A stretch of DNA of 64,000 nt from assembly GCA_964510025.1 (NCBI GenBank), contig CAZDZV010000004.1, positions 611 to 64,610 of the forward strand, in the 5' to 3' direction. The notes under the pieces were generated by a model, which made no database searches, was not told the DNA's origin, and saw only the letters and a program-made list of their open reading frames with translations. Source of the DNA: an uncultured Methanosarcinales archaeon (GTDB taxonomy: Archaea; Nanobdellota; Nanobdellia; Woesearchaeales; DATDXC01). Position numbers and translations under genes: made by a program. Of the stretch, positions 25,325 to 56,227 are shown piece by piece. How positions within the stretch are numbered: the first letter of the stretch is position 1; each line of letters opens with the position of its first letter.

Positions 25325-25326
25325 GA

Positions 25327-25743
25327 ATGCCAGGATTGGTTGATATGCATCCAAAGGTTGGGATAAGGCCTACTATCGACGGCAGGCTAAGGGATGAGGT
25401 TTCTGTGAAAGAAACAGAAGCATGGGCTCAGGCAGCAGCCGAGTTCATTAGACAAAATGTGACATATACTGATGGCGAGCCAGTGGGGGTTTTGGTATCA
25501 CATGTAATAGGCAATGCAGAAGAAGCTGCAAGAGCAGCCAGCCATTTCAGCAGGAATGATGTGGGTGTGGAGATAACAGCGACCGACAAATGGTGCTATG
25601 GTACTGAAACGGTCAGTATGGATCCAGTTACGCAGAAAGCGCTGCTCCCGAAAAACGGCACAGAAAGACCAGGAAGGAGCAGACTACCGCGCCTGCAGCA
25701 CACTGGGGCCGTTGTACAGGCCCATCCAGCATTAAGATGGTAG
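25327..25743 (+). CDS. L-fucose isomerase N-terminal-domain-like ORF (139 aa), possibly a truncated gene remnant
   Basis: 'VGIRPTIDGR', 'VGVEITATDKWCYGTETVSMDP' and 'KNGTERPG' match remembered N-terminal FucI motifs ('IGIRPVIDGR', 'CWCYGSETIDMDP', 'FNGTERPG'). The ORF ends ~450 aa short of a full-length FucI. Confidence 0.45.
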   Translation: MPGLVDMHPKVGIRPTIDGRLRDEVSVKETEAWAQAAAEFIRQNVTYTDGEPVGVLVSHVIGNAEEAARAASHFSRNDVGVEITATDKWCYGTETVSMDPVTQKALLPKNGTERPGRSRLPRLQHTGAVVQAHPALRW

Positions 25744-27137: not shown

Positions 27138-27139
27138 AA

Positions 27140-28284: not shown

Positions 28285-28285
28285 G

Positions 28286-29866: not shown

Positions 29867-29869
29867 AAA

Positions 29870-30928: not shown

Positions 30929-30932
30929 CTAT

Positions 30933-36746: not shown

Positions 36747-36965
36747 CTATTTTTTCTTCTTTTTCCTTGTTTTGCGCTTCTTGGCTGGCCTGACGCTTCT
36801 GAGCACTTTCTTTGCATTTGCTCCGATGATGGCTATTCCCAGGCCGATCAGCAGAAATGCCCACCAATACTCCTTGTTGAATCCAAGATACACAACAGCC
36901 AGGAAGATAAATATCAGGGAAGCAGAAAGATACAAATCTCCTATTACTGTTTTTCTTAGTTTCAT
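36747..36965 (-). CDS. Small membrane protein with poly-Lys tail (72 aa)
   Basis: Two hydrophobic helices then 'RPAKKRKTRKKKKK'. Could be an artefact of an A-rich spacer. Confidence 0.25.
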   Translation of the reverse strand: MKLRKTVIGDLYLSASLIFIFLAVVYLGFNKEYWWAFLLIGLGIAIIGANAKKVLRSVRPAKKRKTRKKKKK

Positions 36966-36997
36966 CCTAAACCTCAGAATAAAAGAAAAAAAAGGTT

Positions 36998-37489
36998 TTA
37001 TGGAACCTTTACGATCAATTCTCCAGCTGTAGACTTGTCAAAATCCTTTCCACCTGGGTCAATCGTATACTTCAAAGAGATTGTTGCTTGTACTTTTTCA
37101 TCATCGTCAGCTAGATCATCGCATGTTCCAATTGAACCATCACGATCGAAAACCACAGTGCCAACATCATTTGTTCCACCTGTTTTATCAAGTGACACCG
37201 CTCCCGCCTGTGCCAAGCAACTATTAGTGTCGTCTTTTATCTCTGAAGTATCCAAAATATCCACATCATCATTCAGGGTGTTCTTAATCTTCAAGCTAAG
37301 TGTACCTGTAGTAGCGCTCCATTTGTCACAAAACAATCCGCTCCCGGTTGGCAGCGTACATTTCTCAGGCAGCATCTCTGTCGGCTTGATGAAATACATC
37401 AATGCGCCTATGGCAATAAGCACAACTAAAATAGCCCAGCCATAGGTCATCAAGAATTCCATAGCAGCTTGTCCTTTTTTTATCATCAT
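36998..37489 (-). CDS. Archaeal type IV pilin-like protein with class III signal peptide
   Basis: 'MMIKKGQAAMEFLMTYGWAILVVLIAIGALMYF': basic leader, Q at +1, E at +5 (QAAMEF). Same 5' context 'aagaggtgaaaaaATG' as the upstream paralogue. The ORF track extends the N-terminus by 10 aa. Confidence 0.75.
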   Translation of the reverse strand: MMIKKGQAAMEFLMTYGWAILVVLIAIGALMYFIKPTEMLPEKCTLPTGSGLFCDKWSATTGTLSLKIKNTLNDDVDILDTSEIKDDTNSCLAQAGAVSLDKTGGTNDVGTVVFDRDGSIGTCDDLADDDEKVQATISLKYTIDPGGKDFDKSTAGELIVKVP

Positions 37490-37502
37490 TTTTTCACCTC
37501 TT

Positions 37503-38099
37503 TTATGGTATCTTAACAATCAGTTGACCTGCTGTGACCTTAGCGAACCCAACAAGTGAATCTGCATCTGCGCCTGCGCCACCGGGTGCGCTATCAGCCC
37601 CAAGAGAAATTTCATCTGTAAAATTCAAACTCACTTGCCCTTGTAATTTTTCGCCAGCAACTATAAGATCGGTAGCAGCACCATAGCAGGTGTCAGCTGC
37701 ATCTTCATCAGCAAGTCCATCCCTACCAAAAACAACTGTCGCTGTACCTTCTTTAGGCAATTGAACAGATACATCTGATGGGTTAGTATATCCCACTAGA
37801 TCTGAATCGACATTTGCATAGCACCTGTCCCCATCATCGTTTTCAATAAAAGACGTGGTTGATACATACAAAGGCTCAGTCATTGAGTTCTTAATCAATA
37901 AAGTAATCTCTGATCCAACTGAATCAGCGCCCCACTGTTCGCAAAATATTCCGCTTCCAGTTGGCAGCGTACATTTCTCTGGTATCATCTCAGTCGGCTT
38001 GATGAAATACATCAATGCGCCGATTGCAATTAAAACAACCAAGATTGCCCAGCCATAAGTCATCAAGAATTCCATAGCAGCTTGAGCTTTTCTTCTCAT
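37503..38099 (-). CDS. Archaeal type IV pilin-like protein with class III signal peptide (paralogue)
   Basis: 'MRRKAQAAMEFLMTYGWAILVVLIAIGALMYFIKPTEMIPEKCTLPTGSG'. The first ~45 aa are nearly identical to the neighbouring gene. C-terminal '...GQLIVKIP'. Confidence 0.8.
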   Translation of the reverse strand: MRRKAQAAMEFLMTYGWAILVVLIAIGALMYFIKPTEMIPEKCTLPTGSGIFCEQWGADSVGSEITLLIKNSMTEPLYVSTTSFIENDDGDRCYANVDSDLVGYTNPSDVSVQLPKEGTATVVFGRDGLADEDAADTCYGAATDLIVAGEKLQGQVSLNFTDEISLGADSAPGGAGADADSLVGFAKVTAGQLIVKIP

Positions 38100-38160
38100 T
38101 TTTTCACCTCTTTTGTTGACATTTGTAGGAACATAACCTACTTACCTTATCTTTGGCACA

Positions 38161-38180
38161 ACTTATATATAAACTTTTTG
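38161..38180 (-). promoter_or_regulatory. TATA-like element upstream of the tandem pilin genes
   Basis: The minus strand reads 'tttatatataagt', ~65-75 nt upstream of the ATG at 38099, with SD 'gaggtg'. Confidence 0.25.
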
Positions 38181-38204
38181 TTTTTGAATATACTAGTATA
38201 GGGA

Positions 38205-41200
38205 TTATGTACCCCACCTCCAGACTCTCGCCTCGACAATAGTAGGCCCCCACATGAAAGGTATCCTGCCTATGCTTACTGTCTCGACATCCAGATCATT
38301 GGCTCCGAACTTCACAAACAGCAGTCCATCATCATCAAAATCAAGCTGGTCAAAAAGCCTGCATATGGCATTGTTTATGGCATCCTGATCATAGTCTGTA
38401 TCGCAGGAAGTGAAAGCGTTGAATGTGCAGTTTGCAGAGCTGTTATAGCTGTTAGGTATAGGCACATCAGCATATGTCCCATCCTCAAATCCAAGCGTCC
38501 AGATGCAGCCCTCTGCCTTTGCAAAGACGCCAGTGTAGTTCATGTCCATCCTTATCCCTATAGTATATATAGCCATGTCATCTGCAGAGCCGATTGATAC
38601 GTTATGGCTGCCCTGTGCTGTTGATATCCTGACAGTATTGTTCCCTGGTCCGAGCAGACCCACAGGGATATTAACTATATATGGGTCTCCCAGATAAGAG
38701 TACTCAACCCCGTAATCAGATATGTTATAGAATGTGTCCCATGCAGAGCCGTTCCACACAGATGCCCTGTCCGTCCATCTTTCTCCTGAATAGGATGTCA
38801 GCTTGGCATCATACAGCAGGACCTGGGGGGGCACTGTAAACGATCCCTGGGTTATATTGTTGCTGAACCTCGGGCTTTCGACGATCACAGGTATCCTTGC
38901 GTATTCAGTCTGGTTCAGCTCAAGGCTGTAGTTGAACTCGATGTATGAATCAGGATATAGCTCATTGCTCACGTTGCCTGTCACATTTGCTGTCTGGGCT
39001 GCAAACTGCAGCTCGATCATGTCGCTGGCTATCTGCCTGTAGATGTCCATCAGCTGCGCAGCATCATTGGCATCATAGGCATGGCTGCAGTCATCGCAGC
39101 ATGCTATATCGTCCATCAGGCCTGTATCTGCTCCAGAGCCGAAAGCCACCGAATATATCCTTATGCCGAACCTGTCAAAAGCATCGCATGCCTTCTGCAC
39201 AGCCTCGTCCTCTGCTCCGCTTAGGTCGTAGTTGCTCCTGGTGCCGATCCTTGTGTTGGCCTCTCCGTCGCTCATCACAAGCATGGACATGAACCTGTCA
39301 TAAGACAGCTCATCGTCGCTCCACTTCAGCGTAAGGTTGAGGTTCCTGAACCTCCAAAGGTCATTGTCGTCATCTGTGTGCAGGCAGCCTGTTGTTGTGC
39401 CGGAAAACAGCCTTATCTCAACATCTGAGCTGTTCAGCACCATCACCGGAACATCTAGCAGAACCTCCTGCCACTCATTGTCTCCTGACCATCTTTGGTA
39501 GTCGATCCTTCCTATATACTGTCCGTTTACGTAAACGCAATCATAAGAATCAGGATTGACATCCAGCGCCTCAAATCTCAGCAGTCCTGCCCTTATCTGG
39601 TCTGTGCCTATGCCTGTATTAAAGACCACGCTGGACGACTCTGCCCCGTCATCCAGCACGACAAGGCTTGGATCAGAAAAGCTTGAATCATGAATCTCCG
39701 AGCTATGCTCCCAGGCTATCAGCTCAACATGCTTCAGGTCCCAGTCATCCTGTTCCCCTGCTGTGTCAAAGCACCCGTTTACATTTGCTCCTGTGACAGT
39801 TATATTATTGGTGCCTGTGTTGGCAACGCTGTAATTTATCTTTACGCTTTCCAGCACCGGCGTCCTTGAGGTGTTTGCAGTTGAGAGGTTTGCCCTCCAC
39901 TGTATATATCTGGAATCTGCCTGGGCTATTGGCCCCGCATCATCATAGGCAGCGCTGCTCCATGCGAAATTATCCCACGAACCATCTGGAACAGCAACGT
40001 CTCCTGTCCTGATCTCAAGGTATATGCTTGTACCGGCTGGCAGCTCATTTTCCCAGCTTATGCTGCCCCAGTCAGCATCGCCCCCTGCATAGTATACCGG
40101 GCTCATTATCCAGCCGTCAGCTGAATATTCTGACGTGAGGTCCCCTTCCTCCATCTCTGGCCCAAAGCTGAGAAAGCTGTCATTCATCGAGAGGTATTGC
40201 GCAGCTATCCAGTCATCAGACCTCGCAGCGTTGGAAAGCCTGAGCTCATCTATCATTCCGTCAAGCTCCTCTTCCCCGCCTGTTCCGTCATGCATCCTGG
40301 TGTTCCCATAGCCTGCCCTGATGTCCCCTGAATGGGCATAGAGCCTCCTGCCTTCCCCAGCGCCAAATTCAGTTCCATCCAGGTATCCTTCAAAGCAGTC
40401 GCCGCAAAAATTATCAGTTCCGTCCCTGAGCCTCAGGGCCACATAATGCCATTCTCCTGTACCGATGCCTGTGCTGAGCCATGTGCCGTCCCAGTCGCTC
40501 TGCCCTGAATCCCTGTTCCATCCTCCAACATATGCATTTCCCGAGCTTAGGTATATATTCAGTCCTCTTGTGCCGCCTCCCTGCTCATATATGATATTCT
40601 TTGCACCTCCATCGATGGTGTCTGCCCTGAACAGCACCTCTATGGTCTTGTCATCCCATGGACCGCCATCGTTTATCTCATCGCTGTTGGCTATTGTGCT
40701 GTAGTCGTTGTTGCCATCATAATCGTAGGCTCCATCCACGATGCCTGAGCTAGAGCCCGGGCAGTTGCCGCATCCAAGATCATTGTTGAAGGAGCTGGAA
40801 TCCTGGTCATCATCCATATGGTACACCCCGATGAAATCATCATCCCATACAGCTGCAGCATCCTGGTCATCTGGTGCGCCGTTGTTGCCGTAGTATACCC
40901 ATATATAACCTGTATCAGAATAGCCGTCTATAGATGCCCTGACCCATACATATGAGCTCCCGCCTTCATCCCATTCCTCTATCTCATGGGCCAGCTGCGC
41001 TCCCTCGTCATCCACAAACCTTATGTCCTGTCCCATGTCCTGGGTTTCGCTGTAGTCTATCCTGGTGCTGTCCAGCCTCACAAGCACTGGAAAATCAGGC
41101 AACTCCCCTTGTCCTGAATTATCAAACGCTATCTTCCTCCTTTTCAGCCAGGCGCTGTCCCACCATGCGTCAGCCTGCTTCAGCACTGCGTCTCCGGGAG

Positions 41201-43082: not shown

Positions 43083-43092
43083 CTAGCACCTC

Positions 43093-44043
43093 TCATATCT
43101 CCCAGTTCAGTAAGGTCAGGTTATACCTTTCAAGATGGCCTGAATCCAGCTTTACCCAGTCAGGCGTGAAGTTGATCCTGTAGTCTCCGTCTCCAGAATC
43201 TGTCCAGTAATGATAGTCTATTATGCTGCTGTCCCCATGGACGCTGAGCCCCTGTTCGCTTACTTTTATCAGGTTGACCATGCTCTCTATGCCGCAGCAG
43301 CCTGAGCTTGTCAGGTTGTTCTCGAATCTCATCAGGAAGCTCGGTGCATCCCCGCTGTCCACATAATATGAGTTCTCGATGTGCTCCATCAGGTTGCTGA
43401 CGTTCCATTTAACCTTCTTGAAGGTATAGTTGCCTTGATAGGGTGTTGCATTTATGACATTGGTTATCCTGCCAAGGCTGTAGACGATATACAGGGGATC
43501 CTCAAAGCTGTTGATCTTTATCTGGGACTCTATCTGCTGCTCCCTTCTCCAGGATGCGATGCCTGCCGTGTCATCTATGTAAAAAGAGATATTTGTCCAT
43601 ACGACCACATGCCACGGGTCTGTCTGGAAGATATCTGTTTCATGAAGCACCATGCTGACATTTATCTTCAGCTTGTTGGATTCCAGCCTAATATTCTCGA
43701 GCCATTGGGGCAGAGTAGAGCCTATCATCAGGGTGGAATTGGTGCTGTTCACTGTCCCGTACAGCAGGGCTTCCATGAACATCTCCTCAGTATTGTTCAG
43801 GAACTTCCCTTCCCTTATGATATACTCCTCCAGGGCCATCAGCGCCCTGTATGAGCTGATATATATTCCTCTCTCGACGTCCCTCTCAAGGTCCTTGACA
43901 AAATCATTCATCGAGTCTACTCTCATCTCTATCACAGACATCCTCTCGTTTATCCTTTTGTAGCTCGGCATCATGAACACAAAAAGGAAAACAAAAAGGA
44001 AAGCTATCGTCATCAAAGTGAAATACATGCCTTTTTTTTTCAT
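43093..44043 (-). CDS. Membrane-anchored pilin-like/secreted protein (316 aa)
   Basis: N-terminus 'MKKKGMYFTLMTIAFLFVFLFVF' (basic leader + G + hydrophobic helix) with an N-x-S/T-rich ectodomain. Start set at the Met overlapping the upstream stop. Confidence 0.5.
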   Translation of the reverse strand: MKKKGMYFTLMTIAFLFVFLFVFMMPSYKRINERMSVIEMRVDSMNDFVKDLERDVERGIYISSYRALMALEEYIIREGKFLNNTEEMFMEALLYGTVNSTNSTLMIGSTLPQWLENIRLESNKLKINVSMVLHETDIFQTDPWHVVVWTNISFYIDDTAGIASWRREQQIESQIKINSFEDPLYIVYSLGRITNVINATPYQGNYTFKKVKWNVSNLMEHIENSYYVDSGDAPSFLMRFENNLTSSGCCGIESMVNLIKVSEQGLSVHGDSSIIDYHYWTDSGDGDYRINFTPDWVKLDSGHLERYNLTLLNWEI

Positions 44044-47000: not shown

Positions 47001-48227
47001 CGAGGTGTCTGTCACCAGAACAACATCAGATGTCGAGATATTTTTTTCAGCAAGCCCGAACCTGAATGGTATGGTCTTCTTTGACATTTCTGTGTAGTTA
47101 AGCAGATTGGACAGGGTATAGTTGGATATTGTTCTCTGGATAGTGCCGACTCCGGTGTGCTGGTAGACAGTGGTATTGCCTATATTAAAGAAAGTTGACA
47201 CGCTGGCAGCCGGGTTTACTGCATAATCCAGGTAGACCTTCATGGATTTCAGCAGCCCCTGGACAAAAAAGGAAGAATAAAGGTTTATAACCCCGTCTAT
47301 CTCTGGCAGCCAAAAGGTCTCAGTTATGATGTTCCCCCCCTCATATCCGCCGTAGCTGATGCAGCTGCCGTAGCCCCCGCAAATTATCTCATACTTGTCA
47401 TAGAGGTTGGAGGTTGTGTATCCTACCCTTATGAATCCTCCCCCTATGTAAGCATCCTGGATATCATGGAAAGCTACTGTTACATAGTTATCTCCTGCAT
47501 GGAAAAAGCTTGTGTTGGCCTCGATGATGGTTGGTATGGCCTCGGCAGTCTGATTTGTGGCATTAAACCTTCCCACAAATGCGTTGTTCACGAAAAGGTC
47601 AAAATCCTGGACCACCCTCATCTCTATATAGAACGAGTTCACGCTGCTTATCTCCCACGGCAGCACGATCTTTTTGGTGATATTGCCGTTGCCCACGTAT
47701 CCGCCGAAGTACGAATAGACTGCAGATATCTTCTCATCCAGCTCAGACAGGAATACCCTTGAGGTGAATCCCTCGATAGCCTTTTCCCTTTCTATGCCTG
47801 ACACCAGGGCCTTGGCTGAGATGAGCTGCCTCACCCTGCCCAGGGTGTTGTTGAAAACAGGATCATCATATCCCTCTACCCAGAAGCCGAAGTTGACCCG
47901 GCCAGGTATAACATCCCTGGTCGTCAGGTTCATCAGCTTTTCAGCTCTTTCATGATCTCCAGCTACCTTGAATCTCAGCACCTGCTCCATGATCGTCCTG
48001 TTGTAGTCAGTGACATTGCTGTTGTTAAGAAGCTCCCTGACAGCAGCATCATCTATCTCGCCTACCTTTATCTTTGACAGGGACTGCACGATATCGCTTG
48101 AAAAATACATTATCTGGGGATCCTCTTCCTGCTTCACATAAAACATCGGTATTATCACCAGTACAGATATTATGAGCACTGTGGCGATCGTTGCATCAAT
48201 GCTGAAAAAAACACCTCTCTTCACCAT
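44040..48227 (-). CDS. Giant surface adhesin-like protein (1395 aa), paralogue with extreme Cys-rich insert
   Basis: 'MVKRGVFFSIDATIATVLIISVLVII' N-terminus. MIDAS-like 'VVLVTDTSNSM'. LamG-like 'WQHIAVTV...IYVDGHMVG...MDELAIHKRILTDREI'. ~330 aa segment with more than 60 Cys. VWA-like 'IVLMTDGEAN...ITIYTKGFGSDAGSS'. C-terminus '...DFDDDGRLFAKFGPSDLDVETVSIGKIPFMWGPTVVEARVWR' matches the first giant. Confidence 0.75.
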   Translation of the reverse strand: MVKRGVFFSIDATIATVLIISVLVIIPMFYVKQEEDPQIMYFSSDIVQSLSKIKVGEIDDAAVRELLNNSNVTDYNRTIMEQVLRFKVAGDHERAEKLMNLTTRDVIPGRVNFGFWVEGYDDPVFNNTLGRVRQLISAKALVSGIEREKAIEGFTSRVFLSELDEKISAVYSYFGGYVGNGNITKKIVLPWEISSVNSFYIEMRVVQDFDLFVNNAFVGRFNATNQTAEAIPTIIEANTSFFHAGDNYVTVAFHDIQDAYIGGGFIRVGYTTSNLYDKYEIICGGYGSCISYGGYEGGNIITETFWLPEIDGVINLYSSFFVQGLLKSMKVYLDYAVNPAASVSTFFNIGNTTVYQHTGVGTIQRTISNYTLSNLLNYTEMSKKTIPFRFGLAEKNISTSDVVLVTDTSNSMRECMDSREIRPDQDTLLLLHFDSMPLQDSSGWNRTVNVSGALGLDTGVIGSSAEFTGSQFIRIEDDLGDPEAMTIEFWMRKADWNQGSQYLLDARADGNWWYLQDYVSSNCPEQGNICWYARVQSPSAYLKNDKWQHIAVTVNKTESQIYVDGHMVGTGGGRTIQIGKMLYIGYRYSESCCQLRASMDELAIHKRILTDREIMSHAMALNQSSCPDDGIGDMPDWCRYETSHCPPERPVADEAYAPEAFFDAPDFEKIVYSDRECLWMDNCSTDCPPSHPYSNGSLSYDTLVECGAAACPAGFCPDGQCFHEYKDCAWYQRDSYGDRICDNLGLIYGYDENGNSVTSFSLCRPGIGSCNASEKDWNAYYCNCVYRDKPFCGAPDECLPGEEIYYPIFNDISWRPYDPGDPLNPTCLASECYTGQTRYGAFYCTEEASCDPGYVSCSECSLCSGLCCCDETTLEYECEQEEVRCCTETRCYTYMDYCCGAILCSTDTSNACCDTEDHCKGATENTEQCIPGLSEPIGERYGCSGEMCIAENGSCYICDSVRIRLAKKLDREFVDEIILGDKVQLGLVRYGTGVTSATNLSLNRTMLYEEIEGYHADSGLTCLSCAIERSASILINNGTAEKRYIVLMTDGEANVCLDGSECGEAAIEEAINLSENISKEYDITIYTKGFGSDAGSSTLAKIANVSNGKFYKGSNAEDLALIYSTIAYEIAYESQVINLSLSSNVSSVIRRGSYIEFVYQDIDESLDYSVIPLTLETPRFNNNQTKGSFFVPSESKLLEAKVTSYSDDRWASYLGLLDTGYIDIFNLSEMSYDYHALGDPFIISIPVSYTHEGENQVWIQTGSGAVEWVGGSPADRAIYTLGIKINLSYSGVFSKAEGCNWSLMFEDGQNISMMIPASYNGTKDCNFTDSTDCGAEFKDDAVNDAMCRLFQQLDFDDDGRLFAKFGPSDLDVETVSIGKIPFMWGPTVVEARVWR

Positions 48228-48724
48228 ACATACAGCACCAGTCTTATTATCTGTGAGTCGTAGTTGACAAACCTCAGGATCTTGATGAGCTGCTCGGGAT
48301 CTGAATCCTTGTAGTTAGCGCCGATCTCATCCACTCCATCTATGTTCACTGTATTATTGTCCTTATCTTCAAATGTGACGTAGTAGTTCCTGTCTGTCGA
48401 AAGGAGCAGCCTCGACCTGTCATAATCAGCCAGTGCGATATTGTTGAAGTTGCCCACCTTGTTGGCATCCAGGTCCATGCTTCCGTTTGTAAGCCCGATT
48501 ATCACCGCATTTCCTGGTTCCCAGTCTGCGGGATAGCCGCTTGAAACGAGATAGTTTGATACAAGCTTTGCATCGATCAGCAGGTTATCCATGCCCTGTT
48601 CCTTTACATCAAGTGCAGAGGTGCTGTACTGATAGAAGATATAGATGCCTACAGAGAATATCAGCAGCGCTATAGCGATGTCAGCTCCCCACATCTGCGC
48701 TTTAGTTGATGTATATCGTTCCAT
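48221..48724 (-). CDS. Pilin-like protein (167 aa) with N-terminal hydrophobic helix
   Basis: 'MERYTSTKAQMWGADIAIALLIFSVGIYIF' has class-III-like A-1/Q+1 with D at +6. Overlaps both neighbouring genes. Confidence 0.5.
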   Translation of the reverse strand: MERYTSTKAQMWGADIAIALLIFSVGIYIFYQYSTSALDVKEQGMDNLLIDAKLVSNYLVSSGYPADWEPGNAVIIGLTNGSMDLDANKVGNFNNIALADYDRSRLLLSTDRNYYVTFEDKDNNTVNIDGVDEIGANYKDSDPEQLIKILRFVNYDSQIIRLVLYVW

Positions 48725-49079
48725 TTGTCTTGTTTATTATGTTTATGCCCTTGGTGATGGTCCCGGTGACATTAGGTATCTCTTTCCAGAAATCCTGGTT
48801 GTCGGCATGGATGATCACATATTTTCCTTCTATGGATATTGAATAGTTCTTGGTAAGCAGCTTCTCAGGCAGAGTGAATTCCCTGACATAGCCGTCTACG
48901 ACCCTTGCGGCCAGATTTACCTCTTTCTGTATCTTGCTTACCACAGAATCCGCAACCAACAGGAACTTGTTCCTGTTCACTACAGTTGTGTTGTATGCCA
49001 CTGCTCCCATCACAATGGCAAATATGAATAGCATGCCTCCCACAAGAAGCATGAATTCCGTTGATGCCTGCGACTTCAT
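48702..49079 (-). CDS. Archaeal type IV pilin-like protein, class III signal peptide
   Basis: 'MKSQASTEFMLLVGGMLFIFAIVMGAVA': Q+1, E+5, then a hydrophobic helix. Confidence 0.7.
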   Translation of the reverse strand: MKSQASTEFMLLVGGMLFIFAIVMGAVAYNTTVVNRNKFLLVADSVVSKIQKEVNLAARVVDGYVREFTLPEKLLTKNYSISIEGKYVIIHADNQDFWKEIPNVTGTITKGINIINKTNGTIYIN

Positions 49080-49492
49080 GTTGAGTTTATGAATACATAT
49101 CCCTCGTTCGCTTCTACGCTTACATATTGGTATCCCTCTGATGTTTTTATGCTGCCCTTCAAAGGGATAGGAGACAAATAGAAGATATCAGATTCGCCCA
49201 TCCTTGTCTGTACCTTGAAGGATATCTCATAGGCGACATCAGTCGGATCTGCAGGATCAAGGCTATTGAGGTTCACTGAATTTACCCCGCCCGGCATGTA
49301 TATCTTGATGGTGGTTTTGGTCGGCGCGCCGTAGTAGTAGATGGATTCAGCAGTATCGACGATCTCCTTGGATATCTGGTCTATCTGGTTTGTATTTATC
49401 GTGCCTCTGACCTCAGACGAATAATGAGAGGATACAGCTATTATCGACAGAGCTATGAAAGTGGCCACTCCAACAACAAGCACGTATTCCAA
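49076..49492 (-). CDS. Pilin-like protein; annotated TTG start probably too short (upstream in-frame '...RLGQVGLEY' gives a class III signal)
   Basis: From the TTG: 'LEYVLVVGVATFIALSIIAVS'. The in-frame upstream codons read 'ISREIRLGQ|VGLEYVLVV' (Q+1/E+5) with no ATG or GTG. A possible ATT start lies 7 nt after SD 'AAGAGGTG' at ~49528. Confidence 0.55.
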   Translation of the reverse strand: MEYVLVVGVATFIALSIIAVSSHYSSEVRGTINTNQIDQISKEIVDTAESIYYYGAPTKTTIKIYMPGGVNSVNLNSLDPADPTDVAYEISFKVQTRMGESDIFYLSPIPLKGSIKTSEGYQYVSVEANEGYVFINST

Positions 49493-49690
49493 GCCTACCT
49501 GTCCCAGCCTTATTTCTCGAGAAATTCCTATACACCTCTTGGTGGAATATATAAATTACTACTATATAAATTTAATCATATTCTCTCATCCAGCATCCGG
49601 AATATAGTCACTATCTCAGAATTAATACATAGCTTTAAAAAACAAATAGGCAGATAGTATAATTGGGTAGTGGTCAATATAGAATTTAGA
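49493..49690. promoter_or_regulatory. Divergent promoter region between the pilin/adhesin operon (-) and the assembly-machinery operon (+)
   Basis: AT-rich. Duplicated 'atataaatt' boxes ('gaatatataaattactactatataaattt') and SD-like elements facing both ways. Confidence 0.3.
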
Positions 49691-50536
49691 ATGGATGAGA
49701 AAAATATATCCGAAACTGAAAAAGAGCTGATAGGATACATACAAAAGCTGCTTTCTGAAAACCATACTAAGGATGATATCAAAAAAGCATTGCTGGAAGT
49801 GGGATGGCCGGAAGACTATGTAGCATCTATCCTTGAAAACACCGAAAAGCCGCTGATGCAGCCTGCTGATTCTGCGCCAGCTGACCTAAAGACCTATGAG
49901 ACAGAATTTGATAAGATAGTGGATCTGGCAAAAGAAAAAGGGAGCATAAAGGTATCAGCTCTGGCAAAGCATCTGGGAGCAGACAAGAAAAATATCGAGG
50001 AGTGGGCCACTATCCTTGAAGAGCACAACCTTGTTAAGATATATTACCCGCTGATTGGCGAAGCAGAGGTAAGAAAGACAGACTATAAGCCGCCGAAAAA
50101 GCCGAAAAGGCAGCCAAAGAAGGATAAGCCAAAGAAGGATAAGCCAAAAAAGACAGCAAACAGGCCTCTTTGTGTCTCGATAATAGCTGTCCTGTTTTTC
50201 ATCTCAGGCGGCTTTAGCCTTATTTACAGCCTTTTCCTGATGATACAGGGCGGGATGGGAGCTGCTTCAGCAAGCGCAGTGCCTATCGGCGGCCCGATCA
50301 TAGCAGAGATGATTAAGGGATTCTACATCTTCATAGTATTTATCCAGGTATTGGTTGGCGCCTTTTCGATCCTCATAGGGTTGGGCTTATGGAACCTGAA
50401 GAACTGGGCAAGGATAACCGCTATAGTCCTTCACGCCATAGGTATGCTGACCATAATAATGATACCGATATCCATTCTGATCATATATCTTCTTTCGAAA
50501 AAAAGCACCAAGCAGGCATTCATGGAAGTGAGATAA
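49691..50536 (+). CDS. Membrane protein with cytoplasmic winged-helix-like N-domain, Lys/Pro repeat linker and 4 TM helices
   Basis: 'KGSIKVSALAKHLGADKKNIEEWATILEEHNLVKIYYPLIGEAEV' looks wHTH-like. Linker 'KPPKKPKRQPKKDKPKKDKPKK'. C-terminal half is hydrophobic. An alternative GTG start lies at 49670. Confidence 0.5.
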   Translation: MDEKNISETEKELIGYIQKLLSENHTKDDIKKALLEVGWPEDYVASILENTEKPLMQPADSAPADLKTYETEFDKIVDLAKEKGSIKVSALAKHLGADKKNIEEWATILEEHNLVKIYYPLIGEAEVRKTDYKPPKKPKRQPKKDKPKKDKPKKTANRPLCVSIIAVLFFISGGFSLIYSLFLMIQGGMGAASASAVPIGGPIIAEMIKGFYIFIVFIQVLVGAFSILIGLGLWNLKNWARITAIVLHAIGMLTIIMIPISILIIYLLSKKSTKQAFMEVR

Positions 50537-50537
50537 G

Positions 50538-52052
50538 GTGGAAGAGATAGACAGGTATGAGGTAACTGCCGATGAGATAAAGGCAGAAGTCCGCATACTT
50601 GGCGGAAAAGGCATCATGAACACATACAACCTCATAGTGCCAACTGTCAGCAAGCCCACGATGGCACTCATAGAAGAGCTGAAGCAGGAGCTTATCATGA
50701 ACGTGAAGGTCAGCGCTGCTGAGATCCTGGATCCGAAGATCATGAACAAGCTTAAGCAGAAGTTCAAGGAAGAGTCCCAGCAGATGCTTAAGAAAAAGGT
50801 GCCCACCTTGGATGAGGACGCAAGAAATTTCCTGGTTGGCATCCTTCTTCATGACATGCTTGGCTTCGGCAAGACAGAATTTCTCCTGAATGATGGCGAC
50901 CTGGAGGAGATCATCATCAATTCCGCAACAGAGCCCGTGAGGGTGTACCATAAGAAGTTCGGCTGGCTGGAGACCAACATAAGCATCGAATCCGAAGACA
51001 AGATACAGAACTTCAGCAACATGATCGCAAGAAGGGTAGGAAGGCAGATCAACACCCTTAATCCCCTGCTTGACGCCCATCTGATCACAGGAGACAGGGC
51101 CAATGCTGTCTTTTACCCTATAGCAAACAAAGGGAATACTATTACCATCAGAAAATTTGCCAGGGACCCCTGGACTGTAACTGACTTCATAACGAACAGG
51201 ACATCAAATGCAGATATCTTTGCGCTTATCTGGCTCGCCATGCAGTATGAGATGAACATAATAATCAGCGGAGGCACAGGCTCGGGAAAGACAAGCTTGC
51301 TGAACGTTTGCATGCCGTTTATCCCGCCAAACCAGAGGATCATAAGCATTGAGGATACAAGGGAGCTGCAGCTTCCTAAGTTCCTTTACTGGTGCCCTCT
51401 GACGACAAGGCAGCCTAATCCTGAGGGAAAAGGCGAGGTTACTATGCTTGATCTGCTCGTAAATTCGTTAAGGATGAGGCCAGACAGGATCATACTTGGA
51501 GAGATAAGGAGGAAGACAGAGGCCCAGGTCCTTTTCGAGGCAATGCACACCGGCCACAGCGTCTATGCCACCATACACGCGGATTCCACAAAAGAGACCA
51601 TACAGAGGCTTATAAATCCGCCTATCAGCGTTCCCAAGAATCTGCTCTCAGCCGTAAACCTGAACGTGGTCATGTTCAGGGAAAGGAGAAGGACATTGAG
51701 AAGGGTCTACCAGGTCGGCGAATTCGTTGTAGGCGAAGAGGCCCAGAACATATCGGTCAAGCAGAATGTGCTTTTCAGGTGGAAGCCTTCCAACGATAGC
51801 ATTGTCCAGCATTCGCCGTCGGTCAGGATCTACGAGGACCTGAGCAGGCACACCGGTCTCTCAGAATCAGAGATAAAGAAAGATCTGGAAGGAAAGAAGA
51901 AGGTGCTGAGCTACATGGTGAAAAATAAGATCCGAAGCCTGAATGAGGTGGGCAAGGTGATGAAGGATTTCTACCTGGACCCCAATGGAGTTGTTGATGC
52001 TGTGGAGAAGAATGTTCACCCTGAAAAGATATTAGGTAGTCACGATGTTTAA
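50538..52052 (+). CDS. Type II/IV secretion-family assembly ATPase (FlaI/PilB/GspE/VirB11-like)
   Basis: Walker A 'IIISGGTGSGKTSLLN', Asp box 'RPDRIILGEIRR', His box 'MHTGHSVYATIHAD'. GTG start. Confidence 0.85.
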   Translation: MEEIDRYEVTADEIKAEVRILGGKGIMNTYNLIVPTVSKPTMALIEELKQELIMNVKVSAAEILDPKIMNKLKQKFKEESQQMLKKKVPTLDEDARNFLVGILLHDMLGFGKTEFLLNDGDLEEIIINSATEPVRVYHKKFGWLETNISIESEDKIQNFSNMIARRVGRQINTLNPLLDAHLITGDRANAVFYPIANKGNTITIRKFARDPWTVTDFITNRTSNADIFALIWLAMQYEMNIIISGGTGSGKTSLLNVCMPFIPPNQRIISIEDTRELQLPKFLYWCPLTTRQPNPEGKGEVTMLDLLVNSLRMRPDRIILGEIRRKTEAQVLFEAMHTGHSVYATIHADSTKETIQRLINPPISVPKNLLSAVNLNVVMFRERRRTLRRVYQVGEFVVGEEAQNISVKQNVLFRWKPSNDSIVQHSPSVRIYEDLSRHTGLSESEIKKDLEGKKKVLSYMVKNKIRSLNEVGKVMKDFYLDPNGVVDAVEKNVHPEKILGSHDV

Positions 52053-52938
52053 GATTCCATATGCCCTGCTTCCCGAGCCTGCATTGCAGAAAAATTCATC
52101 TTTCTTCATCGGGCTTGGCGCTGCGCTCGAAAAGTCATTTCCATTCCTTAAGCTGGCCCTCAAGCAGGCTGAGACAGACTATTCGCCGAGGGAATACCTC
52201 AGCATGTGCCTTATGGCCAGCACCATCTTTTTCTTTTTTTTCCTTTCCTTCCTGACATTTGTCCTGCTGATACTGGACGTTGATAACTTTTTCCTCATGG
52301 CTCTGATGGCTGCCACTGCGATAACCATGTTCGCATTTTTCCAGCAGATAAGCTATCCTAAGATACATGCGAACAGGCGGCTGCGGGATATTGAGAGGAA
52401 CCTGCTCAGCGCCCTGCAGAACATCCTGATCCAGCTCAACTCTGGCGTGCCCTTGTTTGAGACAATGGTCAATGTCTCAAAAGAGGATTATGGTGAGATA
52501 TCCAAGGAGTTCTCCAAGGCTGTAAAGGCTATAAACGGAGGCAAAGACCAGATAGAGGCGCTGGAAGATATGGCTGCAATCAACCCGTCATTATTCTTCA
52601 GGAGAGCTATTTGGCAGCTAGTCAACGGCATGAAATCAGGTGCTAATATGACCACGGTCATACAGGAGATAATAGACCTCCTCGCAGAGGAGCAGATCCT
52701 GCAGATCCAAAGGTATGGTAGCCAGCTGAACCCCTTGGCCATGTTCTATATGCTGGTAGTGGTGATTGCTCCCTCGCTGGGCATGACATTCATGCTCGTC
52801 CTTTCATCATTTATCAGCCTTCCGGAGGTCATGACAAAGATGATGTTTTGGGGGGTATACGCGCTGGTTACTTTCTTCCAGATAATGTTCATGGGCATCA
52901 TTAAGTCAAAGAGGCCCAATTTGCTTCAGAGTGATTAG
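52045..52938 (+). CDS. T2SSF-domain membrane protein (FlaJ/TadB/TadC-like), first half
   Basis: Its ATG overlaps the ATPase stop. Single T2SSF-like repeat with flanking TM helices. Confidence 0.7.
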   Translation: MFKIPYALLPEPALQKNSSFFIGLGAALEKSFPFLKLALKQAETDYSPREYLSMCLMASTIFFFFFLSFLTFVLLILDVDNFFLMALMAATAITMFAFFQQISYPKIHANRRLRDIERNLLSALQNILIQLNSGVPLFETMVNVSKEDYGEISKEFSKAVKAINGGKDQIEALEDMAAINPSLFFRRAIWQLVNGMKSGANMTTVIQEIIDLLAEEQILQIQRYGSQLNPLAMFYMLVVVIAPSLGMTFMLVLSSFISLPEVMTKMMFWGVYALVTFFQIMFMGIIKSKRPNLLQSD

Positions 52939-52940
52939 AA

Positions 52941-53912
52941 ATGTATCAGTTTTTAGCCAATTTTTTTCCGAAAAAAGTACAGCAGGACTATGTTAACCTG
53001 TTGAGGTATTCAAACATCAAGATAAACCCTAGGCGGTTCATAGGCTTCGTTGGATTTTTCGGTTTTTTGCTGGCCCTTACTGTTGCGTTCTACGCATCAT
53101 GGTTTTTTGGGCTTTCCTTCTGGCTGTTTTTCTTTGGATTCTTTGTTCTTGCGCAGGTTACTGTATATTTCTACCTGGTGTTGAGGGCTGATTCAAAATC
53201 AAGATTTGTTGAAAGCATACTTCCTGACGTGCTGCAGCTTATGGCATCCAACCTCAGGGCTGGCCTGACCACTGACAAGGCGCTTTTGCTTTCCGCAAGG
53301 CCAGAGTTTGGATCGTTCAAGGATGAGATAAACCATGTCGGCAAGCAGATAGCAATGGGAAAAGAGATAGGCGCTGCCTTGGTGGATATGAGCAAGAAGA
53401 TCAAGTCTGAGAGGCTTGGCAAGACTGTTTCACTGGTAGTGTCCGGCCTTCAGGCAGGCGGCGAACTTGCTGCCCTCCTCGAGCAGACAGCGAAGAATCT
53501 CAGGCAGCAAAGCCTTGTGGACGACAGGATCAGGGCTAATGCTATGATGTATGTCATCTTCATATTCGTAGCCGTCTGTTTGGGAGCCCCTGGCCTTTTT
53601 GGGCTGAGCTCTTTCCTTGTGGAGGTCCTGCAGAGCGCGATAGGCACCCTTGACGTACCACAGAACATAGGGGCGTCGGTGCCGATCTCATTCTCTGAGA
53701 TCTCGATAGGCAATGATTTCATTATGATGTTCTCTGTAGTCTTTCTGATAACCTCCTCCATAATGGGTTCGCTGATCCTCGGCCTGATATCGAAGGGCAA
53801 GGAGAGGGATGGCATCAAATGGATACCCATACTGATAGCTGCAAGCCTCGCTGTCTTCTTTATCAGCCGGATAGTCGTCAAATCACTTGTCGGAGACCTA
53901 TTCCAATTTTAA
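52941..53912 (+). CDS. T2SSF-domain membrane protein (FlaJ/TadB/TadC-like), second half
   Basis: Starts 2 nt after the previous stop. Second T2SSF-like repeat ('LPDVLQLMASNLRAGLTTDKAL...') with TM helices. Confidence 0.7.
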   Translation: MYQFLANFFPKKVQQDYVNLLRYSNIKINPRRFIGFVGFFGFLLALTVAFYASWFFGLSFWLFFFGFFVLAQVTVYFYLVLRADSKSRFVESILPDVLQLMASNLRAGLTTDKALLLSARPEFGSFKDEINHVGKQIAMGKEIGAALVDMSKKIKSERLGKTVSLVVSGLQAGGELAALLEQTAKNLRQQSLVDDRIRANAMMYVIFIFVAVCLGAPGLFGLSSFLVEVLQSAIGTLDVPQNIGASVPISFSEISIGNDFIMMFSVVFLITSSIMGSLILGLISKGKERDGIKWIPILIAASLAVFFISRIVVKSLVGDLFQF

Positions 53913-53932
53913 ATTCGTAAACTTTATATATC

Positions 53933-54649
53933 ATGCACTATAGGTATTTTTTGATGGCTATAGAGAGGATAGCGACAGGCATAGCCGGGCTGGACGGCCT
54001 TGTGGGAGGCGGATTCAAGCGCAACACCATAAACCTTATAGCTGGAGCTCCTGGCACAGGAAAGACCATATTCGCTGTCCAGTTTATCATGGAGGGGATA
54101 AGGAAAGGGGAGCCCGGCGTCTACATAACTTTCGAGGAAAAGAAGAAAAATGTCTATGAAGACATGCTGGAATTTGGATGGGATCTTGAAAAAGCCGAGA
54201 AGGAGGGGAAATTTATCTTTATGGAATACACCCCTGAGCAGGTCAAGAACATCCTGACAGAAGGCGGAGGCATTGTTGAGTCAGTTATCGAGAAGACAAA
54301 AGCAAGAAGGATAGTCATTGACTCCATAACCTCATTCACCCTGCTCTATGGGGACGAGCTTACAAAAAAAGAGGCTGCACTTGCCTTATTTGAGCTGATC
54401 TCAAAGTGGAACTGCACCGGGCTTCTGACGTCCCAGGATATCTCCAAGGATGAACTTACGATATCAACTGCGCTGGAGTTTGAGGTTGACGGCATAATCC
54501 TTGTTTATCATGTCAGAAAAAAAGGCACAAGGATAAGGGCTATAGAGATACTTAAGATGAGGGGTACAAAGATACCTGAAAAGACATTCCAGCTTGAGAT
54601 AACAAATAAGGGTATCAAGATCAATACCCAGAAGATAGAGATGCTGTAA
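53933..54649 (+). CDS. KaiC/RecA-superfamily ATPase (FlaH-like)
   Basis: 'IATGIAGLDGLVGGGFKRNTINLIAGAPGTGKTIFAVQF' is the KaiC/RadA-like P-loop context. 238 aa, matching FlaH size. Confidence 0.7.
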   Translation: MHYRYFLMAIERIATGIAGLDGLVGGGFKRNTINLIAGAPGTGKTIFAVQFIMEGIRKGEPGVYITFEEKKKNVYEDMLEFGWDLEKAEKEGKFIFMEYTPEQVKNILTEGGGIVESVIEKTKARRIVIDSITSFTLLYGDELTKKEAALALFELISKWNCTGLLTSQDISKDELTISTALEFEVDGIILVYHVRKKGTRIRAIEILKMRGTKIPEKTFQLEITNKGIKINTQKIEML

Positions 54650-54663
54650 AAAAAGGTGATAGG

Positions 54664-55842
54664 ATGATAAAGGTTAAGGAACTGATGGTCAAGGATGTAA
54701 TAACGATAAATGCTGATGAGAGCGCCTATAGGGCAAGCGAGATCATGGCTGACAATTCTGTAAGCTGCCTTATAGTGATGGAAGACAGCAAGCCTATCGG
54801 CGTTTTAAGCGAGAGAAGCCTGGTGCATGACGTCCTTCTTAAGGAAAAAAATCCTAAAGACACCAGGGTTTCAGACATAATGAAAAAGATCAGCACCATG
54901 GGCCCTGATGAGCATTTCTTTTCCCTGGTTGAATACATGAGAAAGAACAACCTCAGGAGGGTTGTCATCGTAGATAAGGGCCAGCTGGCAGGCATCGTCA
55001 CAGAGACAGATGTCGTAAGGACATCCATAAGGCTCCAGAACTACCTGGAATCCAAGGCAATGGGAAAGGCAAAGAAAGGCGCTCTCATGAACAAGCTGGG
55101 CGACATACAGTTCGGCGTAAGAAAGATGAGCGCCGGATACAAGGACCTCAATGAGATCCTGCATGGAGGTTTTCCCTACAACAAGAGCATATTGCTGGTG
55201 GGCTCGCCTGGTTCAGGCAAGGGCCTGGTTGCTTTCACCTATATGAAGGAAGGGCTCATCTCGAAAAATAAGGTGGTTTATATCTGTATGAACGAGTTTC
55301 TCAAGGATATAGAGGGGCTCTTTGCATCTATTGGGGTGGATATAAACGATCATCTGAAGAAAGGCAATTTTGGCCTGATAAATATGTATAAGCAGATAAT
55401 CGATGACCCAAAAAGGATATTTAACGAGGAAGACCAGCTCCTGCTGAAGGAGTTTTCAGTCATCAAGGAGACGCTTCTTAACATAATCAAGGAATCAGAG
55501 GTCCCTATAAGGTGCGTTGTAAATGTCATTACCCAGTCATTGGTACTCCACAAGGAAGGAGTGGTCTATAAGTTCATATTGAGGCTGAATAATCTCCTAA
55601 AGGAGAACAACATTACTTCCCTCTTCTTTATCCACAGGGGGAAGAAAGATGACCAGTTTTCGGTCTCTATGGAGGAGATCATGGACGGGGTCCTGGATTT
55701 CAGCACAGAGAATGTGGGGCCACATGAGAAGAGGATTCTTACCCTGAAAAAGATGAAGCCTGAATTTGCCCATCTCCCGCTATACTACTACTACCAGTTT
55801 GACCGCACCAGGAACATGATGATAGACAGGATGAAGGATTAG
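54664..55842 (+). CDS. CBS-pair + KaiC-like ATPase-domain fusion protein with atypical Walker A (GSGKG)
   Basis: Two CBS-like repeats (aa 1-125; 'VKDVITI...', 'RRVVIVDKGQLAGIVTETDVV'). KaiC-like 'ILHGGFPYNKSILLVGSPGSGKGLVAFTY', with Gly replacing the Ser/Thr after the P-loop Lys. Confidence 0.65.
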   Translation: MIKVKELMVKDVITINADESAYRASEIMADNSVSCLIVMEDSKPIGVLSERSLVHDVLLKEKNPKDTRVSDIMKKISTMGPDEHFFSLVEYMRKNNLRRVVIVDKGQLAGIVTETDVVRTSIRLQNYLESKAMGKAKKGALMNKLGDIQFGVRKMSAGYKDLNEILHGGFPYNKSILLVGSPGSGKGLVAFTYMKEGLISKNKVVYICMNEFLKDIEGLFASIGVDINDHLKKGNFGLINMYKQIIDDPKRIFNEEDQLLLKEFSVIKETLLNIIKESEVPIRCVVNVITQSLVLHKEGVVYKFILRLNNLLKENNITSLFFIHRGKKDDQFSVSMEEIMDGVLDFSTENVGPHEKRILTLKKMKPEFAHLPLYYYYQFDRTRNMMIDRMKD

Positions 55843-55879: not shown

Positions 55880-56227
55880 ATGAAAAAGACCATCATAGGA
55901 CTGACTGAGAAAGTGACGATAATAGGAAAGAAGAAGAGCCAGAAAAGGCTCATAGCTAAGGTGGATACAGGCGCCACAAAAAGCTCCATGGATTCCCGGC
56001 TTGCTGCCAGGATGCATCTTGGGCCGGTCATAAAGACAAAGCTTGTTAAGTCAGCTCACGGCAACAGGCTGAGGCCTGTGATAGAGGCCCATATAAAGAT
56101 TGCAGGCAAGAAGCTGAAAGCAGAATTCACCCTGGCAGACAGGATACACATGAAATATCACGTTCTCATAGGACAGAACATCCTTAAGCACGGATTTCTT
56201 ATCGATCCCTCTAAAAGAAGCAAATGA
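55880..56227 (+). CDS. Retropepsin-like aspartyl protease (RimK-associated)
   Basis: 'AKVDTGATKSSM' carries the D-T-G-A aspartic-protease active-site motif. 115 aa. 4-nt overlap with the following RimK-like gene. Confidence 0.55.
   Translation: MKKTIIGLTEKVTIIGKKKSQKRLIAKVDTGATKSSMDSRLAARMHLGPVIKTKLVKSAHGNRLRPVIEAHIKIAGKKLKAEFTLADRIHMKYHVLIGQNILKHGFLIDPSKRSK

Follow-up and report, generated by a model that had tools for sequence, protein, structure and literature searches.

The 64-kb stretch of DNA examined here (the window) carries, at positions 36,747–55,842, two divergent and tightly packed gene sets that probably encode a non-motility adhesive type IV pilus of a Woesearchaeota-like DPANN archaeon, of the class with two platform proteins (Epd-like, 'System 1'). 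Judged by its genes, the locus belongs to the archaeal pilus classes with two platform genes and is a known kind rather than a new machine. An initial annotation of the same DNA had described a pilus-like surface apparatus and suggested a previously uncharacterised filament. The exact composition has indeed never been studied experimentally, but the machine itself fits known archaeal pilus classes. The two divergent operons are present with all the parts that the annotation listed. Its assignment to a DPANN-like archaeon is also backed: the pilus ATPase is 60–75% identical to Woesearchaeota/Nanoarchaeota proteins from metagenome-assembled genomes (MAGs), the best among thousands of homologues, and this identity supports a DPANN (Woesearchaeota-like) origin.

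The plus strand encodes, in order, a winged helix-turn-helix (wHTH) membrane protein, a T2SSE ATPase, two T2SSF proteins, a KaiC protein and a CBS-CBS-KaiC fusion, with spacings of −8 to +21 nt that are consistent with a single operon. The minus strand holds nine genes, eight of which are consecutive and encode class-III-like N-termini. Between the two sets lies a 144-bp A+T-rich spacer (49,526–49,669) in which we read several TTTATATA-like boxes, and both operons presumably have their promoters there. Domains were called by Pfam and NCBIfam profile searches with curated cut-offs, and transmembrane (TM) helices were predicted; the window scan covered the genes of the locus and the other long (at least 150 aa), non-overlapping open reading frames (ORFs) of the 64 kb. 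No tRNA and no Rfam match was found in the window. For comparison we assembled 83 loci, 80 from a scan of one genome per species (ATPase 48–74% identical) and three from further contigs, called their ORFs and searched these with the window proteins; many of the loci lie on truncated contigs.

The assembly ATPase is a member of the PilB/EpdL/FlaI superfamily (Table 1). Its earlier description as FlaI/GspE-type stands for the T2SSE family but not for FlaI membership: the FlaI model NF058587 is still its best NCBIfam match, yet the score is 296.7 bits against a cut-off of 550, and the protein is nearer GspE. Scores against the TadA model TIGR03819 (176 bits, cut-off 373) and the BasE model (140 bits, cut-off 1000) also fall short. 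Among solved structures, A. fulgidus GspE (PDB 2OAP) is matched over its full length with 247 bits, ahead of FlaI (194 bits) and CpaF (178 bits). Epd-type ATPases of Methanocaldococcus reach 258–268 bits at 36–39% identity. Of the 20 representatives looked up from an exhaustive search of 1.8 billion, one came from a cultured organism: the ATPase of Methanocaldococcus lauensis, which scores 268 bits and whose gene has two T2SSF genes behind it, in the EpdL–EpdK–EpdJ arrangement. Read as similarity only and not as a tree, the bit scores were 268 for Methanocaldococcus, 264 for Nitrosopumilaceae (thaumarchaeal), 257 for Methanomicrobium and 247 for A. fulgidus. A PilB3_C domain is present in 39 of 58 ATPase orthologues, and a tblastn search of the ATPase against plasmids returned only bacterial CpaF and one distant haloarchaeal PilB (30% identity).

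The platform is encoded by two genes with one T2SSF domain each, whose products are paralogous to each other (22% identity, E = 6e-10). The initial annotation was right to describe a FlaJ/TadC homologue split into two single-domain genes, but the split is not unusual, since the Epd pilus of Methanococcus needs EpdL together with two PilC paralogues, EpdJ and EpdK (PMC4371748).

Many DPANN orthologues of the pilus ATPase are ~1000–1240 aa long (P0279, P0280, P0284, P0285, P0288 and others) and match in two pieces. The break falls at residues ~250–275, at or just after the Walker A motif, which fits intein insertions; the window copy is without one. In M. lauensis (L085, 5679–7943), an intein-containing TFIIB gene stands directly upstream of the Epd-type ATPase gene, in the place taken by the wHTH gene in DPANN, and echoes the link between TFIIB and pili noted by Makarova et al. 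(2016, PMC4858521).

A class-III-like N-terminus was defined as a charged residue, then G/A/S, then a hydrophobic helix of ~20 residues, and the pattern was run on 301 window ORFs and complemented by reading. At least five such signals had been claimed. The signals are confirmed, with Gln at +1 and an acidic residue at +5 or +6 in five proteins, but the number was an undercount, as eight consecutive genes carry them. Elsewhere in the window the same pattern gave ~4 weak matches (one FtsX-type permease, the others short ORFs), none of them pilin-like. The five proteins with Gln +1 are PilA1, PilA2, p125, p138 and p167; Glu +5 is found in all of these except p167, which has Asp +6 instead. Both giant proteins of the operon have a conserved Asp at +6, and p328 and all its orthologues are without an acidic residue at +5/+6. 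The class-III-like N-termini are conserved among orthologues.

PilA1 and PilA2, recognised from the outset as a tandem duplicate pair, are 48% identical overall (E = 4e-51). Their first 58 residues are near-identical and the globular part has diverged; at the DNA level the two genes form a repeat (D2) of 83% identity. Both are predicted, with high confidence, to fold as an N-terminal helix followed by a β-sandwich domain of ~110–150 aa. PilA-type proteins have ~3970 homologues, and for PilA1 and PilA2 no Pfam pilin family, PilA-type (Pilin_N) included, was reported. The sequence of the 105-nt gap upstream of pilA1 (38100–38204) suggests a separate strong promoter for these major-pilin candidates.

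The remaining small class-III-like proteins are minor-pilin candidates. For p138, the listed ORF (TTG 49492) begins past the cleavage site, within the mature helix. Because all orthologues begin M..[KR]GQ[IV]S[IL]EY, the start should lie upstream of this TTG, and most likely it is the non-canonical ATT 49525, which sits 7 nt after a Shine-Dalgarno-like aagaggtg. Orthologues of p138 match Class_IIIsignal (PF04021) with E = 4e-4 to 4e-3, and p138-like pilins occur in 35 of the 83 loci. The match of p125 to DUF7266 is weak (E = 4e-3 in the window, 3e-5 for the orthologue in L001, a Woesearchaeota MAG locus). p167 has orthologues in 27 of the 83 loci, and the L001 orthologue aligns with DUF7287 over its full length at E = 2e-4, below the cut-off. 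We take DUF7266 and DUF7287 to be haloarchaeal families; a literature search on the two found nothing. p328 has no Pfam family and adjoins the vWA scaffold gene in most of the 19 loci that encode it (of 83). By analogy with GspK, it may be the tip-most minor pilin and perhaps the cap.

Among the scanned ORFs of the 64 kb there is no Pfam match to Peptidase_A24, and the locus itself is without EppA. The initial annotation had reported that archaellin, FlaF/FlaG and a prepilin peptidase are missing from the window, and neither Pfam and NCBIfam nor a peptidase motif scan found any. The missing peptidase is not an oddity, since an unlinked prepilin peptidase is the norm in archaea.

The two giants, which account for the greater part of the coding length of the pilin operon, are paralogues with 40–44% identity over the first ~400 and the last ~350 residues. 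Both are orthologous to insert-free proteins of 850–940 aa named 'VWA domain-containing protein'. Using one of these homologues as reference (P0243, 901 aa), we mapped what the giants have in addition. In the 1395-aa giant, ~520–550 extra residues (LamG) directly follow the DxSxS loop 1 of the metal ion-dependent adhesion site (MIDAS). In the 1625-aa giant, ~750 extra residues, with DUF2341 (Pfam E = 3.5e-13) and LamG, separate a helix from a strand further along in this vWA domain. Among the other long homologues that were mapped, inserts of 125–380 aa occupy the site used by the 1625-aa giant or a third site near residue 526; long scaffold homologues outside the mapped set contain MAM, PF06439 or LamG domains. 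The MIDAS of the 1395-aa giant is intact (D407/S409/S411/T1021/D1050), and that of the 1625-aa giant is kept with one Ser-to-Thr change (D393/T395/S397/T486/D1272). Hence the locus contains a conserved ~900-aa vWA scaffold in which lectin-like modules are nested within the vWA domain at recurrent sites, and the scaffold is duplicated in the window genome with different inserts in the two copies. We found no paper describing this insertion pattern; the available survey of modular pilins covers Bacteria only (PMC8179133).

The AlphaFold2 model of P0243 (pLDDT 82.8) has a TM helix, a small helical domain, β-sandwich domains, the vWA domain and further β domains. Its best PDB match by Foldseek is the vWA modular pilin PilB of Streptococcus sanguinis (E = 6e-12; 7ba2, 7b7p), and further matches are the pilus tip adhesins PitA, Mfa5, SpaC, RrgA and GBS104. 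The initial annotation had called the giants adhesins; with vWA and lectin-like modules in both proteins this description holds, as a predicted role. A search of the adhesin genes for template/variable repeats like those of diversity-generating retroelements gave paralogue-level repeats only, and no reverse transcriptase was found in the window.

The same system recurs widely in DPANN archaea. The 80 scanned loci come from Woese-, Pace-, Alti-, Aenigm-, Iain- and Micrarchaeota, with the core module in ~70 of the 83 loci and PilA-like genes in 31. p125, the vWA protein and p328 are each present in 19 loci, and about 19 have the full p138–p125–p167–vWA–p328 cassette. L001 mirrors the window gene for gene, except that one 900-aa vWA protein replaces the two giants. 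What had been called an unusual part list is therefore the norm of the lineage, as the same synteny is seen on contigs from all six groups. The small membrane protein at the end of the pilin operon is rarer: among the 83 loci, orthologues of 70–73 aa adjoin pilA genes in L001–L003 only. Other Woesearchaeota have a second architecture (L002/L003, 5216–6763; L008, L011, L022, L024, L031, L032), in which the p138-type pilin is a modular protein of ~515–640 aa, its gene has the orientation of the ATPase gene, and there is no vWA cassette. Such a gene content suggests alternative tip modules on the same core.

The KaiC gene had been described as FlaH-like and as a hallmark of archaella. Neither description survives. 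The product scores 141 bits against KaiC_arch_3 and 43 bits against ArlH (NF052589, cut-off 215), and its PDB relatives are KaiC, PH0284 and PH0186, with no FlaH at E ≤ 1e-5. Moreover, KaiC-family ATPases lie in or beside clade 2, subclade 4B and Methanomicrobia pilus operons and have been listed as pilus-associated regulators (PMC4858521). A KaiC orthologue (~200–375 bits) is linked to the module in 38 of the 83 loci, and with its intact catalytic motifs the protein is likely a regulator of the pilus motor. Both the 'archaellum-like' KaiC and the 'unusual' split platform are ordinary for archaeal adhesive pili.

The CBS-KaiC fusion is present as annotated, and its catalytic motifs are degenerate, with GSPGSGKG as Walker A, VVNV as Walker B (Asp to Asn) and NE for EE. 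It is a probable nucleotide-sensing pseudo-ATPase partner, and was not found in the other 83 loci. In L001 (13387–14418) and L002 (13425–14458), a DUF7504 gene (degenerate KaiC-like) and a gene of ~145 aa lie between platform and KaiC; the window has neither of the two, and its conserved KaiC gene is followed by CBS-KaiC.

The wHTH/KP-repeat membrane protein is likewise confirmed, by a weak MarR match, a K/P linker and TM helices. ATG 49691 is its likelier start, and the wHTH part is predicted to be cytoplasmic; no PDB relative was found. An orthologue stands directly upstream of the ATPase gene in 71 of the 83 loci; the wHTH part is what is conserved in this opening gene of the ATPase operon. 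Some Aenigm- and Micrarchaeota loci have the wHTH upstream of the ATPase fused to CBS domains, so that, with the CBS-KaiC of the window, a CBS sensing input recurs in the system.

From these parts we propose the following assembly scheme. The eight class-III-like pre-proteins would be cut after G/A/S by a prepilin peptidase whose gene lies elsewhere. From Gln +1 and Glu +5, its specificity may be EppA-like, as published EppA substrates have Gln +1, Glu +5 and KGQx cleavage sites (PMC4371748). A hexameric ATPase of the PilB/EpdL type would dock on the heterodimeric T2SSF platform and drive assembly, as is general for the family. p138, p125, p167 and p328, joined to the vWA protein in a conserved cassette, may prime assembly and sit at the tip, with p328 as a GspK-like cap. 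The giants would be pilin-anchored tip adhesins that attach to proteins or glycans of a host cell or another surface. PilA1 and PilA2, transcribed from their own TATA-like promoter, would form the shaft. The active KaiC and the degenerate CBS-KaiC could tune the motor to the adenine-nucleotide or energy state of the cell, and the conserved wHTH membrane protein could tether or regulate the ATPase operon. Adhesion or host attachment, already favoured in the initial annotation, is the best reading of the function; we infer it from the adhesin modules, the S. sanguinis precedent and the episymbiotic lifestyle of DPANN archaea.

Two other uses of such a machine are each unlikely. The filament might serve chiefly in DNA uptake, as does the Epd pilus in Methanococcus maripaludis, and allow a genome-reduced DPANN cell to scavenge DNA or nucleotides. 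The two Epd-like platform genes and the Q+1/E+5 pilins would suit this function, which is a real alternative and also compatible with adhesion. However, the module has no linked DNA-binding, nuclease or transporter gene, either in the window or in the 83 loci, and its greatest elaboration and variation lie in vWA and lectin modules, which typically serve protein or glycan adhesion. Equally, the locus might build no long pilus and make only a short pseudopilus, like that of the type II secretion system (T2SS) or the Sulfolobus bindosome, which displays or anchors the giants at the cell surface. Class-III signals on large non-pilin-like proteins are a hallmark of bindosome-type display, a 2026 preprint stresses functionalised type IV filament (TFF) machineries, and the share of the operon given to the giants would fit. 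Against this, the two pilins of ~150–200 aa with helix and β-sandwich, their own TATA-like promoter and ~3970 homologues fit a true shaft subunit; there are no substrate-binding proteins, and the BasE score is far below its cut-off. A divergent archaellum for rotary motility, with KaiC as FlaH/ArlH, is very improbable. FlaI is the best NCBIfam match of the ATPase, many orthologues are annotated 'FlaI' by the Joint Genome Institute (JGI), and a KaiC-fold ATPase lies downstream as in fla operons. However, the FlaI and ArlH scores both miss their cut-offs widely, the solved FlaI is a weaker match than GspE, archaellin PF01917, FlaF/FlaG and FlaC/D/E/X are absent from the scanned ORFs, and the platform is split unlike FlaJ. 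We know of no propeller filament with tip adhesins of 1400–1600 aa.

We therefore return to the adhesive pilus of the two-platform class, against which several points also have to be set. The ATPase scores nearly equally against clade 1, clade 2 (247–257 bits) and thaumarchaeal enzymes, and because of this the System-1 assignment rests on gene content and not on phylogeny. The small proteins of the locus match no pilin family above threshold in Pfam or NCBIfam, and PilA1 and PilA2 carry a predicted globular β-sandwich, unlike EpdE (arCOG06620), which is reported to be without a C-terminal globular domain. At their N-termini the giants and p328 depart from the Q+1 consensus, and these segments could stay uncleaved as membrane anchors. 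A crude scan for the GxGD multi-TM motif of A24 prepilin peptidases was empty in the window and in all 83 related loci. Across the locus family, filament, signal cleavage and ligand binding are predictions from the genes, and the regulatory roles given to KaiC, CBS-KaiC and the wHTH protein are pure inference.

Little is known of how the ultra-small DPANN archaea locate their hosts and stay attached to them, and Woesearchaeota have not been brought into culture; the locus offers a concrete and widely conserved candidate apparatus, in which the variable vWA/lectin inserts are natural candidates for host-range determinants. A bolder idea, which we hold only tentatively and consider doubtful, is that the ~900-aa class-III vWA protein is a programmable tip adhesin whose modules are swapped at two to three sites next to the MIDAS, that its duplication gives a dual target range here, and that the KaiC pair couples deployment to the energy state. 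If so, the inserts (LamG and DUF2341 here, MAM/PF06439 in long homologues) could set host or ligand specificity, and these proteins would represent the first archaeal modular pilins to be described and open a direct route to host recognition in DPANN.

Table 1 Features of the pilus locus, in window positions; a slash in a signal marks the predicted cleavage site
Feature	Position	Strand	Characteristics
Small membrane protein, 72 aa	36747..36965	−	2 predicted TM helices, Lys-rich C-terminal tail; last gene of the pilin operon
PilA2, major-pilin candidate, 163 aa from ATG 37489	36998..37489	−	MMIKKG/QAAMEFLMTYGWAIL, also read KKG/QAAMEF; Gln +1, Glu +5
PilA1, tandem paralogue of PilA2, 198 aa	37503..38099	−	signal MRRKA/QAAMEF
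Intergenic region before pilA1	38100..38204	−	TATA-like tttatatata at ~38163–38172; Shine-Dalgarno-like aaagaggtg before the pilA1 ATG
Giant 2, class-III-signal vWA scaffold, 1625 aa	38205..43082	−	RNG/ILFSLD; DUF2341 at residues 684–762, Laminin_G_3 at 789–960
p328, 316 aa from ATG	43093..44043	−	KKG/MYFTLM; class-III-like
Giant 1, class-III-signal vWA scaffold, 1395 aa	44040..48227	−	KRG/VFFSID; Laminin_G_3 at residues 468–614
p167, minor-pilin candidate	48221..48724	−	TKA/QMWGAD; Gln +1, Asp +6
p125, minor-pilin candidate	48702..49079	−	MKS/QASTEF
p138, minor-pilin candidate	49076..49525	−	(M)SREIRLG/QVGLEY
Divergent intergenic region	49526..49669	none	144 bp, TTTATATA-like boxes
wHTH membrane protein, 288 aa	49670..50536	+	MarR-type wHTH E = 7e-4, below cut-off; K/P-rich linker; ~3–4 predicted C-terminal TM helices
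Assembly ATPase, PilB/EpdL/FlaI superfamily, 504 aa	50538..52052	+	T2SSE E = 1e-36; Walker A GGTGSGKT at residue 245
Platform half 1, 297 aa	52045..52938	+	one T2SSF domain, E = 5e-16; in 71/83 loci
Platform half 2, 323 aa	52941..53912	+	one T2SSF domain, E = 3e-15; in 69/83 loci
KaiC-family ATPase, single domain, 238 aa	53933..54649	+	KaiC E = 4e-59; GAPGTGKT, IVIDS, FEE intact
CBS-CBS-KaiC fusion, 392 aa	54664..55842	+	two CBS (3e-20), KaiC (2e-27)

Directly after the CBS-KaiC gene, on the plus strand (55880–57315), a retropepsin-like 'Zn_protease' gene (PF05618) overlaps a gene for a RimK-type ATP-grasp ligase. We considered these two genes as members of the operon and rejected them, as none of the 83 loci has them together with the module. 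They are followed (57354–60434, plus strand) by a gene for a 1026-aa secreted protein with an N-terminal signal-like helix and no Pfam match at E ≤ 0.1, which could be a surface protein. A probable export or surface module lies at 8303–11579 on the minus strand and consists of an ABC ATPase, a MacB/FtsX-type permease and a surface protein with CARDB/NEW3 domains.

The window also contains a sugar-catabolism cluster (19134–34643, plus strand) with aldose 1-epimerase, DUF6786, galactokinase, two FGGY kinases, an enolase-like protein, a xylose-isomerase-like TIM barrel, a GFO/IDH/MocA oxidoreductase and a PfkB kinase. For a contig of Woesearchaeota type, such a metabolic repertoire is unusually rich. 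The G+C content of the cluster is 0.49–0.52 against ~0.46, and it was maybe acquired horizontally. At 25288–28284 on the plus strand, a 151-aa ORF, whose match is confined to the first N-terminal domain of L-fucose isomerase, is followed by overlapping ORFs (25737–27137 and 26833–28284); a frameshift, fragmentation of the gene or an error in the assembly could account for this. The window further encodes aspartate kinase, homoserine dehydrogenase and aspartate-semialdehyde dehydrogenase (1857–3173, 16948–18192, 34690–35703), and the minus strand (4792–8284, 11554–12855) has a three-gene biotin-dependent acyl-CoA carboxylase (biotin carboxylase, biotin carboxyl carrier protein and carboxyltransferase) and a 3-hydroxyacyl-CoA dehydrogenase. 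Together, these genes represent more biosynthetic capacity than is usually credited to DPANN.

The closest likeness among known systems is to Epd, clade 1 and System 1. In the published clade 1 model (Makarova et al. 2016, PMC4858521), an ATPase and two TadC genes are accompanied by at least five minor pilins and two large DUF2341 proteins, so that giants beside minor pilins, part of the list that the initial annotation had called unusual, were already included in it; many clade-2 loci also have two tadC-like genes (PMC4858521). System 1 with two platform genes has been reported in methanogens and DPANN, and two-platform variants of subsystem 4A in DPANN (Sivabalasarma & Albers 2026, bioRxiv 10.64898/2026.04.22.720090). 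The window shares with these systems an ATPase followed by two half-size PilC/TadC paralogues, in the order also seen in M. lauensis, and pilins with Gln +1, Glu +5 and K-G/A-Q cleavage sites. Like clade 1, it has two giants (one with DUF2341), four small or medium class-III proteins and two PilA genes. The 36–39% identity to the Methanocaldococcus ATPases and the report of System 1 in DPANN point the same way. Unlike in Epd, genes for EppA, MinD/FleN and transglutaminase are absent from the window locus, which has KaiC/CBS-KaiC and wHTH instead; the large proteins are built on a duplicated vWA scaffold with nested inserts, and the ATPase is about equally far from the clade-2 ATPases.

System 2 (euryarchaeal clade 2: Haloferax PilB3–PilC3 with PilA pilins; A. 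fulgidus GspE) provides the best solved relative of the ATPase, 2OAP, and the PilB3_C domain found in the majority of its orthologues (39 of 58). Its published association with KaiC ATPases and large adhesin-like proteins is a further likeness, as are the weak matches of p125 and p167 to DUF7266 and DUF7287. The System 2 platform, however, is one fused gene (2026 preprint; 701 aa in Salinibaculum), whereas that of the window is split. The ATPases there have long N-terminal extensions (833 aa) and are 30% identical to the minimal 504-aa protein of the window, and PilA1/2 are without a Pfam Pilin_N match.

For the giants, the nearest parallel is S. sanguinis, where modular vWA and lectin pilins mediate adhesion (PMC8179133). 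As in S. sanguinis PilB, a class-III signal, whose cleavage is predicted here, and an N-terminal helix precede a vWA domain with a MIDAS, and lectin modules serve adhesion (ConA-like in PilC). A tip location is predicted for such pilins too (PMC8179133), and the vWA of PilB likewise has 'arms' on either side of its MIDAS. The bacterial system is similar to type IVa pili (T4aP); in the window, by contrast, vWA and lectin are combined in one protein with the lectin nested within the vWA domain, the proteins are 2–4 times larger, and the P0243 model has no evident canonical pilin globular module behind its helix. The likeness shown is that of the vWA fold.

Tad/Flp systems likewise have two platform paralogues, a CpaF-related ATPase (178 bits) and a large vWA pseudopilin (TadG there) beside small pseudopilins. 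They differ in the TadA model, which the window ATPase matches at less than half of its cut-off (176 against 373 bits), and in that the host here is archaeal; no Flp-type short pilin, secretin/RcpA or TadZ family was found by Pfam among the locus proteins. The archaellum shares the superfamily of the ATPase, a platform, subunits with class-III signals and an accessory ATPase of RecA/KaiC fold. All archaellum-specific markers tested failed: no small protein matches archaellin PF01917/ArlB at E ≤ 0.1 in Pfam or NCBIfam, and the ArlF/ArlG, ArlC/D/E and ArlX families are absent from the 64 kb. The platform is split, unlike the single two-domain ArlJ. The initial view that the locus is neither a canonical archaellum, with no archaellin or FlaF/FlaG and with ATPase and KaiC below the FlaI and ArlH cut-offs, nor an Aap or Ups locus is thus upheld, and its parts compare best with the archaeal adhesive pili that have two platform genes.

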